From: a virus
Lineage: Duplodnaviria; Heunggongvirae; Uroviricota; Caudoviricetes
IMG/VR virus record: IMGVR_UViG_2534682222_000018
Coordinates: 1-18,146 of that record
Direction: 5' to 3' (one strand)
DNA length: 18,146 nt
The notes under the pieces were generated by a model, which worked only from the letters and a program-made list of their open reading frames with translations, was not told the origin of the DNA and searched no databases. Numbering within the stretch: position 1 is the first letter of the stretch; every line of letters begins with the position of its first letter. Made by a program: the position numbers and the translations under genes. Shown piece by piece: positions 8,772 to 9,766 of the stretch.

Positions 8772-9356
8772 ATGAAAATGATTACAGGAATCGAAGCGCT
8801 AGCTTTACAGGCTACAGATATCCTTGCAGCCTCCAGGGCGGCGCAGCAAATAGTTTCCCCACTTGCCAGAGCTAACTCGAGACTGGCACAGTCTGCCATG
8901 CCTGAAAATCCTGATGAAGTTAAGCACGCCTTAGATCGTGCCTCTATTGCGATTGCAGGTGTAGAGCGCAAATTAGTTGAGTGCAATGAAATAGTTAATT
9001 CATTAAACACACTTTCTGATGAAGATCTTCATTTCACCAATGAGTTTCTCATTGAATTAAAGGTTAGGGCTGAAATGCTGACTGGGCACATAGAGAATTT
9101 ACGCGATGTGTTTTCTCTAGTTGAAACGTCGAGCGCTTGGAAGCCTTACATGCCATTGGTTTATGAAAAAAAACGCAAAGCAATTCGCTCTGTTTCTGAT
9201 CTGCGAAATGCATATCTAAACATTGCTCTCCTGGCAGAGCAATTTGTCTCACCCGTGCCGACCGTAAGCAGTAGTGTTGAGGGTAACTCAGAGGAATTTT
9301 CATCTGCACTCTCCGCATCACGCCAGCTGCTAAAAATCGGCTCGGAGTGGAGATAA
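8772..9356 (+). CDS. Hypothetical helical protein, gene 1 of a two-gene module downstream of cI
   Basis: 194-aa ORF; alternative start ATG 8778 has a better-spaced AAGG. AT-rich relative to cI. Predicted mostly helical, no recognised catalytic motif. Stop TAA overlaps the gene 2 ATG (TAATG). Confidence 0.6.
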   Translation: MKMITGIEALALQATDILAASRAAQQIVSPLARANSRLAQSAMPENPDEVKHALDRASIAIAGVERKLVECNEIVNSLNTLSDEDLHFTNEFLIELKVRAEMLTGHIENLRDVFSLVETSSAWKPYMPLVYEKKRKAIRSVSDLRNAYLNIALLAEQFVSPVPTVSSSVEGNSEEFSSALSASRQLLKIGSEWR

Positions 9357-9766
9357 TGGCAAGAGTTAGTATCCATTCATCATTAAATAATTCGGCGTTT
9401 ATACAAGGGCTTGCCAGAGAACTATCTCTTTATCTTAACGGCATCTCTTTATCCGGACGCCTTGGAAGAAATGGCGGCTTTGAACGTAATAATTCAGCGC
9501 AAACATCCGGCATCCTCAAAATCCACTTCAAAGCACCAGGAGAAGGTTTTTGGACTGATGCTATGCGACAATCAACCAGAACGAGCAATAACTACATAGT
9601 ATATGCGCGTCACTGGGATAAGGCTGATGCATTTCAAATCATCGCTGTGATTGCACCAGACGCTCACGAAACGGCTGACGCACTCCTGCCCAGGATTATT
9701 GATATTACGGAACAAGATTTTCACTCGCTAAGTGAGAGTCAAATAGATCGCCTAGAACATTATTAA
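9356..9766 (+). CDS. Putative YafO-like (RelE/ParE-fold) toxin-like protein, gene 2 of the module
   Basis: 136 aa from ATG 9356 (the track ORF starts at GTG 9347). Segment KIHFKAPGEGFWTDAMRQSTRTSNNYIVYARHWDKADAFQIIAVIAPDAHE resembles recalled E. coli YafO. About 38-42% GC over the stretches counted by eye. Confidence 0.45.
   Translation: MARVSIHSSLNNSAFIQGLARELSLYLNGISLSGRLGRNGGFERNNSAQTSGILKIHFKAPGEGFWTDAMRQSTRTSNNYIVYARHWDKADAFQIIAVIAPDAHETADALLPRIIDITEQDFHSLSESQIDRLEHY

Follow-up and report, generated by a model that had tools for sequence, protein, structure and literature searches.

YafO is among the least understood toxins of the RelE superfamily, and the locus described here raises the question of what a gene of this kind is doing in a prophage, behind a repressor gene and next to a partner that does not resemble the antitoxin YafN. 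The locus lies in an 18,146-nucleotide stretch of DNA from a virus of the class Caudoviricetes (Duplodnaviria; Heunggongvirae; Uroviricota), corresponding to positions 1 to 18,146 of IMG/VR record IMGVR_UViG_2534682222_000018, which is referred to as the window. It comprises two genes, here called gene 1 and gene 2. An earlier note on this DNA, made from the letters alone, had interpreted gene 2 as a YafO-type toxin paired with a non-canonical upstream partner. Both halves of that interpretation are supported by the present analysis, although the note had missed that the pair travels as a mobile cassette, that it occupies the equivalent of the lambda rexAB slot and that the family of the partner is linked to that of the toxin.

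The explanation favoured here, which is considered moderately probable, is that the cassette represents a type II-like toxin-antitoxin (TA) module with a new antitoxin family, which is expressed in the lysogen and probably excludes other phages. The assignment of the toxin is already present in databases; what the analysis adds is a defined partner family, its strict link with the toxin, the boundaries of the cassette and the set of genomic slots in which it is found. Gene 1 may represent a new antitoxin family, and the cassette is a candidate defence system.

Gene 2, a divergent member of the YafO family

Gene 2 is intact over the 136 codons attributed to it, from its ATG at 9356 to its stop codon at 9764-9766, and the peptide from which its identity had been recognised (IHFKAPGEGFW...APDAHE) corresponds to residues 56-105 of the product. 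The resemblance to YafO goes well beyond chance, as the protein matches the Pfam family PF13957 (YafO_toxin) with 59.8 bits and an E-value of 2.9e-16, covering profile positions 12-98 of 101 and passing the family threshold (gathering cut-off, 25 bits). PF13957 is also present in all close homologues of gene 2. A protein identical to the product of gene 2, WP_000135003.1, bears the PGAP label 'type II toxin-antitoxin system YafO family toxin' and is carried by Escherichia coli CX21 and six other complete genomes.

The earlier note had given the core of K-12 YafO nearly correctly, with three residues that differ from the actual sequence. Because gene 2 and K-12 YafO align poorly in a direct BLASTP comparison (31% over 39 aa, E 8e-5), the assignment rests on the profile and not on the pairwise alignment; in a multiple alignment, the two proteins share about 20% identity. 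Gene 2 also fails the NCBIfam equivalog NF007377 / PRK09885, with a score of 22.5 bits for a cut-off of 153. On account of the weak BLASTP match and the failed orthologue model, gene 2 is classified from its sequence as a divergent member of the YafO family and not as an orthologue of K-12 YafO.

The predicted structure of the gene 2 product agrees with a fold of the RelE/ParE superfamily (BECR), the best structural matches of the AlphaFold model being the toxins HigB, RelE and YafQ. An alignment of gene 2, K-12 YafO and six phage homologues reveals five invariant residues (Gly37, His57, Arg75, His104 and Phe122), to which the phage-borne branch adds Phe42, Lys55, Trp66, Asn79, His86, Gln94, Pro101 and Glu119. 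By analogy with the general behaviour of RelE-type toxins, His57, Arg75 and His104 may be the catalytic or RNA-binding residues.

Gene 1, a partner from an undescribed family

The open reading frame (ORF) upstream of gene 2 is a real gene, as previously assumed, although its start has to be corrected. The ATG at 8772, taken from a list of ORFs, is not conserved and lies 1 nt from an AAGG ribosome-binding site, whereas the ATG at 8778 is conserved and well spaced (7 nt) from the same site. This gene had been described as about twice the size of yafN and as coding for an all-helical product. Both statements agree with the results, since the protein has 192 aa, compared with 97 in YafN, and is predicted by AlphaFold2 to be helical throughout. 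The non-canonical nature of the partner is evident from its comparison with K-12 YafN, which yields an hhalign probability of 0.2%.

The AlphaFold2 model of the gene 1 protein (predicted local distance difference test, 81.9; predicted template modelling score, 0.74) contains six helices. Residues 5-159 form a confident bundle, followed by a low-confidence linker (residues 160-172) and a terminal helix also modelled with low confidence (residues 173-188). The tail is strongly conserved at P163, V165, S167, V169, G171, A179, S183, L186 and W193 (numbers that count from the ATG at 8772, so that 2 must be subtracted to obtain those of the 192-aa protein). Relatives at about 20% identity retain the terminal motif S-[HN]-x2-L...W, and the last residue is a nearly invariant Trp. 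As the tail is conserved and yet disordered on its own, it looks like a toxin-binding region that folds upon binding, and the C-terminal segment, about residues 160-192, is the candidate for this role.

Searches of gene 1 against Pfam, NCBIfam and PADLOC gave no match, and those against PHROG only insignificant ones. A likeness to the alpha-pore-forming toxins AhlC and ClyA, proposed by Foldseek, was dismissed (template modelling score 0.2, probability <0.5).

Linkage between the partner family and the toxin

The family of gene 1 is tiny: a profile built from 21 close homologues retrieved 14 proteins at E <= 1e-3 among 1.84 billion cluster representatives. Its close members, with 56-99% identity, are hosted by Escherichia, Enterobacter, Citrobacter, Salmonella, Chania, Serratia, Shimwellia, Rosenbergiella, Pantoea and Photorhabdus, and share their genomes and contigs with the family of gene 2. 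Gene 2 directly follows gene 1 in all six genome loci of the close gene 1 alignment and in the Chania locus. In the three distant relatives that were looked up (about 20% identity), a PF13957 gene for a protein of about 136 aa overlaps the end of the partner gene, and one of the three, from Klebsiella oxytoca, is again found right behind a repressor with a helix-turn-helix (HTH) and an S24 domain. The survey of gene 1 neighbourhoods that had been suggested for this locus thus shows a YafO-family gene directly downstream in every member with a readable context.

The same picture emerges from the side of the toxin. In IMG/VR, the gene 2 alignment picked up 56 viral loci, and local hidden Markov model searches of all fetched loci detected 59 intact toxins (38 non-redundant pairs) directly preceded by an ORF of 190-211 aa that matches the gene 1 profile, at E-values from 1e-10 to 1e-80. 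These pairs include partner relatives at about 18-20% identity. Homologous pairs are also carried by phage CUS-3 (ECRS218_0007/0008) and the Flyfo siphovirus Tbat2_3 (UIW10320/UIW10334), whose partners match gene 1 with hhalign probabilities of 99.5% and 98%, respectively. In PHROG, the toxin falls in family 1651 and the partners of CUS-3 and the Flyfo siphovirus in families 18235 and 35514. These PHROG families and phage genes are true homologues of the pair, all annotated as 'unknown function' or 'hypothetical'.

The phage-borne branch of YafO is, therefore, consistently accompanied by a partner whose family has no description in any database, and this offers an explanation for 'orphan' YafO annotations in prophages. 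Previous surveys of Pseudomonas prophages and tailocins reported YafO-family toxins as cargo with the antitoxin unnamed (PMC10449497, PMC4684702). An earlier census found no toxins of the YafO superfamily on phages, and paired those that it detected with Phd-type antitoxins or with unclassified partners assigned through guilt by association (Leplae et al. 2011, PMC3141249).

The rule of a single partner family has a limit. In the most diverged YafO-like genes of phages (26-32% identity; loci L017, L068-71 and L073), the ORF upstream has no detectable homology to gene 1, and neither has that of the first pair of locus L047, so that the rule holds only for toxins with at least about 33% identity. 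These non-homologous ORFs are similar in size (175-186 aa). Three of them, of 175-181 aa and unrelated to gene 1 (L017, 1896-2423; L068, 3484-4014; L073, 3407-3952), present signal-peptide-like hydrophobic N-termini, and would be odd antitoxins if their products were secreted. Locus L047 (IMGVR_UViG_2826149675_000005) contains two YafO-type two-gene modules in tandem, at 2287-3288 and 3414-4411; the partner of the first is a 186-aa protein of phrog_8416, not homologous to gene 1, and that of the second belongs to the gene 1 family.

Coevolution, selection and decay

Pairwise identities of partners and toxins, calculated for the 38 non-redundant pairs, are correlated with r = 0.98, a value that is weak evidence by itself because linked genes are expected to co-vary. 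At depth, the partner diverges about twice as fast as the toxin, having fallen to 18% identity in pairs whose toxins still share 39%. Purifying selection acts on both genes, the ratio of non-synonymous to synonymous substitution rates (dN/dS) amounting to 0.10 (gene 1) and 0.08 (gene 2) in the sole pair of loci with unsaturated dS.

The decay of the pair is asymmetric. Two loci with an intact partner (L007 and L010) carry a broken toxin: in Shimwellia it is a pseudogene, with Trp66 replaced by a stop codon and His7 by Gln, and in Photorhabdus temperata it is frameshifted. Decay of the toxin next to an intact partner is the pattern to be expected if gene 2 were harmful in the absence of gene 1. 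In P. viridis the homologues of both genes are degraded.

A discrete, swappable cassette

The pair is exchanged as a unit, as a discrete and swappable cassette. The block, as detected by BLASTN, is 99% identical over 1145-1157 bp in loci L006 and L018-L021, whose cI and cro genes are unrelated to those of the window. Conversely, locus L002 keeps the cI gene of the window up to 8658 and its downstream flank from 9795, with a DUF7946/7947 gene between them. The BLASTN block and the junctions of L002 delimit the cassette from the stop codon of cI, which marks its left junction, to just past the terminator, with the right junction at 9795-9797 (Table 1).

The gene pair of E. coli CX21 (L001, 5246-6231, compared with 8778-9763 of the window) is identical in every nucleotide, in spite of 62 differences over the 774 nt (8%) of the adjacent cI. 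In a 139-kb plasmid record of Enterobacter asburiae (NZ_CP129515.1, 81211-82196), both proteins are 100% identical to those of the window. Taken together, these identities indicate a very recent exchange between genera. Plasmids are otherwise poor in the pair, which appears in 3 of 72,556 plasmid records; one of the three, of 41,686 bp, has the same length as IMG/VR locus L031, which carries a run of Mu/P2-like baseplate genes.

Table 1. Features of the two-gene cassette and of the regions that border it (window coordinates).
Feature	Position	Strand	Description
Gene 1	8778..9356	+	192 aa, all-helical, undescribed family; putative antitoxin or sensor
Gene 2	9356..9766	+	136 aa; YafO-family (RelE/BECR-fold) putative endoribonuclease toxin
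Mobile cassette	8653..9797	+	Leader, gene 1, gene 2 and terminator; BLASTN block, ~1.1 kb
Leader	8656..8777	+	Travels with the pair; weak promoter-like site, AAGG ribosome-binding site
Terminator	9765..9786	+	Strong intrinsic, 8-bp stem with 6 G-C pairs, then TTTTATTT; ends the cassette
CI-like repressor	7879..8655	+	HTH and S24 self-cleaving peptidase; Peptidase_S24 1.2e-15; PHROG 4 transcriptional repressor 2.8e-43
OL/PL-like region	10080..10141	+	Three operator-like 15-mers; TTGACT-17-AATAAT PL-like promoter; bounds the immunity region beyond the cassette

The immunity region and other slots

The window corresponds to a lambdoid, Rac-like prophage with integrase, RecE-like, RecT, cII, cro, cI and O- and P-like replication genes, in which the cassette is flanked by cI, cro and cII on one side and by RecE/RecT and the integrase on the other. 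Six operator-like 15-mers of the form TTAAC-N5-GTTA[AT] were detected in the window, against 0.33 expected by chance: three lie between cro and cI (7816-7886) and three at 10080-10137. With operator sites on both sides, the cassette is located inside the immunity region, in the position of lambda rexAB.

Other phages carry the pair in other slots. In CUS-3, which is P22-like, it is inserted between mnt and hkcB, an interval that we take to be the one where P22 has sieA. Further copies are found in the baseplate gene run of Mu/P2-like prophages and in the tail-chaperone/tape-measure region of siphoviruses, and Chania harbours a chromosomal copy outside any prophage, between cysE and an AraC-family gene. 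The slot downstream of cI is, in turn, filled with other cargo in related E. coli prophages. This includes the PADLOC candidate PDC-M63A/B (E 7e-40 and 7.5e-45; L074, 1185-2593), the already mentioned DUF7946/7947 gene, with a weak PDC-S42 match (L002, 2703-3569), an uncharacterised pair of 141 and 116 aa (L076, 1729-2506) and HK97 gp48/49-like genes (L003, 2406-3352). This cargo points to the slot as a defence-type hotspot. The interval between cI and N has been described as a hotspot of mosaic diversity that holds bstA, presumably co-transcribed with the repressor (Owen et al., PMC8585504).

Expression of the cassette

The two genes are co-directional, in antitoxin-first order and with one terminator after gene 2, which is the general layout of type II TA systems; the antitoxin-then-toxin order has been reported for PF_YafO (PMC11980606). 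The stop codon of gene 1 and the ATG of gene 2 overlap by 1 nt (TAATG, 9354-9358), and a GGAG Shine-Dalgarno sequence is situated inside gene 1, 8 nt 5' of the ATG of gene 2.

Since no DNA-binding domain can be recognised in gene 1 and no operator was found, the module probably depends on external sequences for its expression. Positions 7843-7872 contain a PRM-like promoter, and only a weak terminator-like site (8669-8683) separates cI from gene 1. By analogy with lambda, the pair is probably transcribed in the lysogen by read-through from the repressor promoter PRM, to which the promoter-like site of the leader may contribute (TCGGCA-17-TATAGT, 8679-8707; a weak site, with a 9/12 promoter match). 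No cI operator-like 15-mer is present in the leader, and searches of the locus for Rfam families and tandem repeats gave no noteworthy Rfam match and no repeats. As a separate observation, the -10 box of the PRM-like promoter ends at 7872 and the ATG of cI is at 7879; the cI mRNA would therefore start at or near its ATG, being leaderless as in lambda.

Functional interpretation of the cassette

According to the favoured interpretation, positions 8653-9797 would constitute a self-contained two-gene 'moron' cassette of temperate enterobacterial phages. Gene 2 would encode a YafO-family endoribonuclease with a RelE fold that cuts mRNA and in this way blocks translation. Gene 1, translationally coupled to gene 2, would encode the cognate neutralising protein, most likely holding the toxin by means of its conserved, intrinsically unstructured C-terminal segment. 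Both would be produced in the lysogen through read-through from the repressor promoter, as in the lambda cI-rexA-rexB transcript, maybe with the help of the weak leader promoter. Infection by another phage would deplete or displace the partner and release the toxin, and the infected cell would be aborted to the benefit of the lysogen population. Abortive infection or superinfection exclusion is regarded as the most likely role, because the pair repeatedly occupies slots that are expressed in the lysogen and that house known or candidate exclusion systems. A bolder version, in which the cassette is an unrecognised abortive-infection system whose fast-evolving gene 1 bundle senses a product of the invader and whose conserved C-terminal tail gates the YafO-type RNase, is put forward only tentatively. 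Were this version correct, the YafO family would be credited with defence for the first time and gene 1 with a new sensor-antitoxin fold, and several phage lineages would deploy the system from their rexAB, sieA and tail-moron slots.

Several points weigh against the favoured interpretation. Sequence and fold searches of gene 1 revealed no HTH, ribbon-helix-helix, AbrB or Phd domain, and a search for inverted repeats in 8640-8800 was empty, leaving the module without a palindromic operator; classical type II antitoxins autoregulate by means of both elements. The putative toxin is not basic (isoelectric point, about 6.0), and the ribosome dependence and cleavage specificity of K-12 YafO are disputed (Culviner et al., PMC8546651). 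We infer binding and neutralisation from the linkage of the genes alone. The argument from the slot is one of guilt by location, as morons with no part in defence are found in such slots too; at E <= 1, none of the 5027 models of PADLOC-DB 2.0.0 matched either protein, and a literature search found no paper that ties YafO-family proteins to phage defence. Lastly, locus L029, the sole reverse case of decay, contains an intact toxin and a disrupted partner. Its two differences from a sister locus, otherwise 100% identical, are single bases in homopolymers (G5 and A6), and to judge from these positions the break in its partner is probably a sequencing error.

The main rival explanation, which is regarded as unlikely, is that the cassette is a selfish addiction module, with the same TA chemistry, that stabilises the prophage or propagates itself by killing the cells that lose it and leaves other phages unaffected. 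The TA-like architecture and the asymmetric decay fit this explanation equally well. The horizontal spread of the cassette as a unit, conserved far above its flanks, the Chania copy outside any prophage and the eroding copies in Photorhabdus, for which the erosion of TA systems has been reported, also speak in its favour. However, plasmids, where addiction modules classically reside, hardly ever carry the pair, an integrated prophage is seldom lost by segregation, and the recurrence in lysogeny-expressed slots extends over at least four phage architectures with known or predicted exclusion genes. If the cassette were an ordinary addiction module, the gain would be limited to a better annotation.

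Another explanation, decidedly improbable, is that gene 1 does more than act as an antidote and belongs to an abortive-infection system of two components, in which it would be the sensor, a regulatory subunit or a second effector; the YafO-like RNase would be kept inactive until gene 1 recognised a phage product and switched it on. It would account for a protein of twice the usual antitoxin size, devoid of a DNA-binding domain and made for the most part of a confident helical bundle that would be superfluous for a toxin-binding peptide, as well as for its fast evolution, which is expected of a protein in contact with phage products. Toxin pseudogenes beside intact partners, with no credible reverse case, argue instead for neutralisation. 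Sensing and neutralising are, nevertheless, compatible, so that this explanation overlaps with the favoured one.

It is very improbable that the two genes are functionally uncoupled, co-transcribed morons, with gene 2 encoding an RNase without toxicity or surviving as an inactive relic, and gene 1 coding for an unrelated phage accessory protein. This possibility draws on the unremarkable isoelectric point of the gene 2 product and on the fact that the family is known from sequence alone. Nonetheless, the adjacency with overlapping start and stop codons persists down to about 18% partner identity and in at least five genomic contexts, His57, Arg75 and His104 are invariant, and dN/dS is about 0.1 for both genes. 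Finally, the arrival in the prophage of a canonical orthologue of the SOS-regulated dinB-yafN-yafO-yafP module, despite the PF13957 membership of gene 2 and the LexA-like character of the neighbouring repressor, was rejected as next to impossible in view of the failed NCBIfam equivalog, the low identities given above, the lack of relationship between the partner and YafN and the absence of dinB and yafP from the vicinity of the pair.

Comparison with known systems

The YafN-YafO pair of E. coli K-12 is a type II TA system encoded in the dinB operon, in which YafN is a Phd/YefM-type antitoxin of about 97 aa. The cassette resembles it in the Pfam family and predicted RelE/BECR fold of the toxin, in the retention of Gly37, His57, Arg75, His104 and Phe122, in the upstream position of the putative antitoxin gene and in the tight coupling of both genes. 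In contrast, its partner is a 192-aa all-helical protein that bears no relation to YafN, the pair is located behind cI in a phage instead of in a LexA-controlled chromosomal dinB operon, and neither an autoregulatory DNA-binding domain nor an operator is detectable. K-12 YafO is the sole studied member of PF_YafO, a BECR-fold family of about 1,000 entries (Gerdes 2025 review, PMC11980606).

With lambda RexA-RexB and BstA of the Salmonella prophage BTP1, the cassette shares the slot directly 3' of cI, inside the immunity region and with a terminator before OL/PL, and probably also the logic of expression in the lysogen; with RexA-RexB, it has a cargo of two genes in common. Searches against Pfam and PADLOC detected no homology of gene 1 or gene 2 to RexA or RexB. 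Unlike RexB, which is a membrane protein, and BstA, which is associated with DNA, the putative effector is a soluble RNase-type toxin, with no relationship to either of them in sequence or predicted fold.

RelE/HigB-family TA modules that act in abortive infection, such as HigB-type toxin-antitoxin-chaperone (TAC) systems (PMC11980606), also have a BECR-fold, mRNA-cleaving toxin that a protein partner holds in check and that is deployed against phages; in the cassette, cleavage, neutralisation and the use against phages are putative. The antitoxin family is different and a gene for a SecB-like chaperone is missing, as the interval between the stop codon of cI and the terminator holds two genes only. 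The secB gene found near the Chania copy is part of a housekeeping secB-gpsA-cysE run. 

Neighbouring genes in the window

Between the cassette terminator and OL/PL, a small convergent gene of phrog_3975, with no assigned function, occupies 9788-10036 on the minus strand; its product probably has 68 aa, starting at an internal Met. Several related prophages, L002 and HK225 among them, keep this right flank whatever the cargo of the slot. On the other side of the repressor, the Cro-like gene at 7549-7794 (minus strand) approaches the Pfam family 'YdaS_toxin' (29.9 bits; cut-off, 30). It was rejected as a second toxin, since the 'toxin' labels of YdaS/YdaT in RefSeq are a known mis-naming of Cro/CII-type regulators. 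Further downstream, positions 11923-16436 encode a very long RecE-like protein (1129 aa), which matches Exonuc_VIII in its N-terminal part and the PDDEXK family DUF3799 in its C-terminal part, followed by RecT, both genes forming a Rac-type recombination module.

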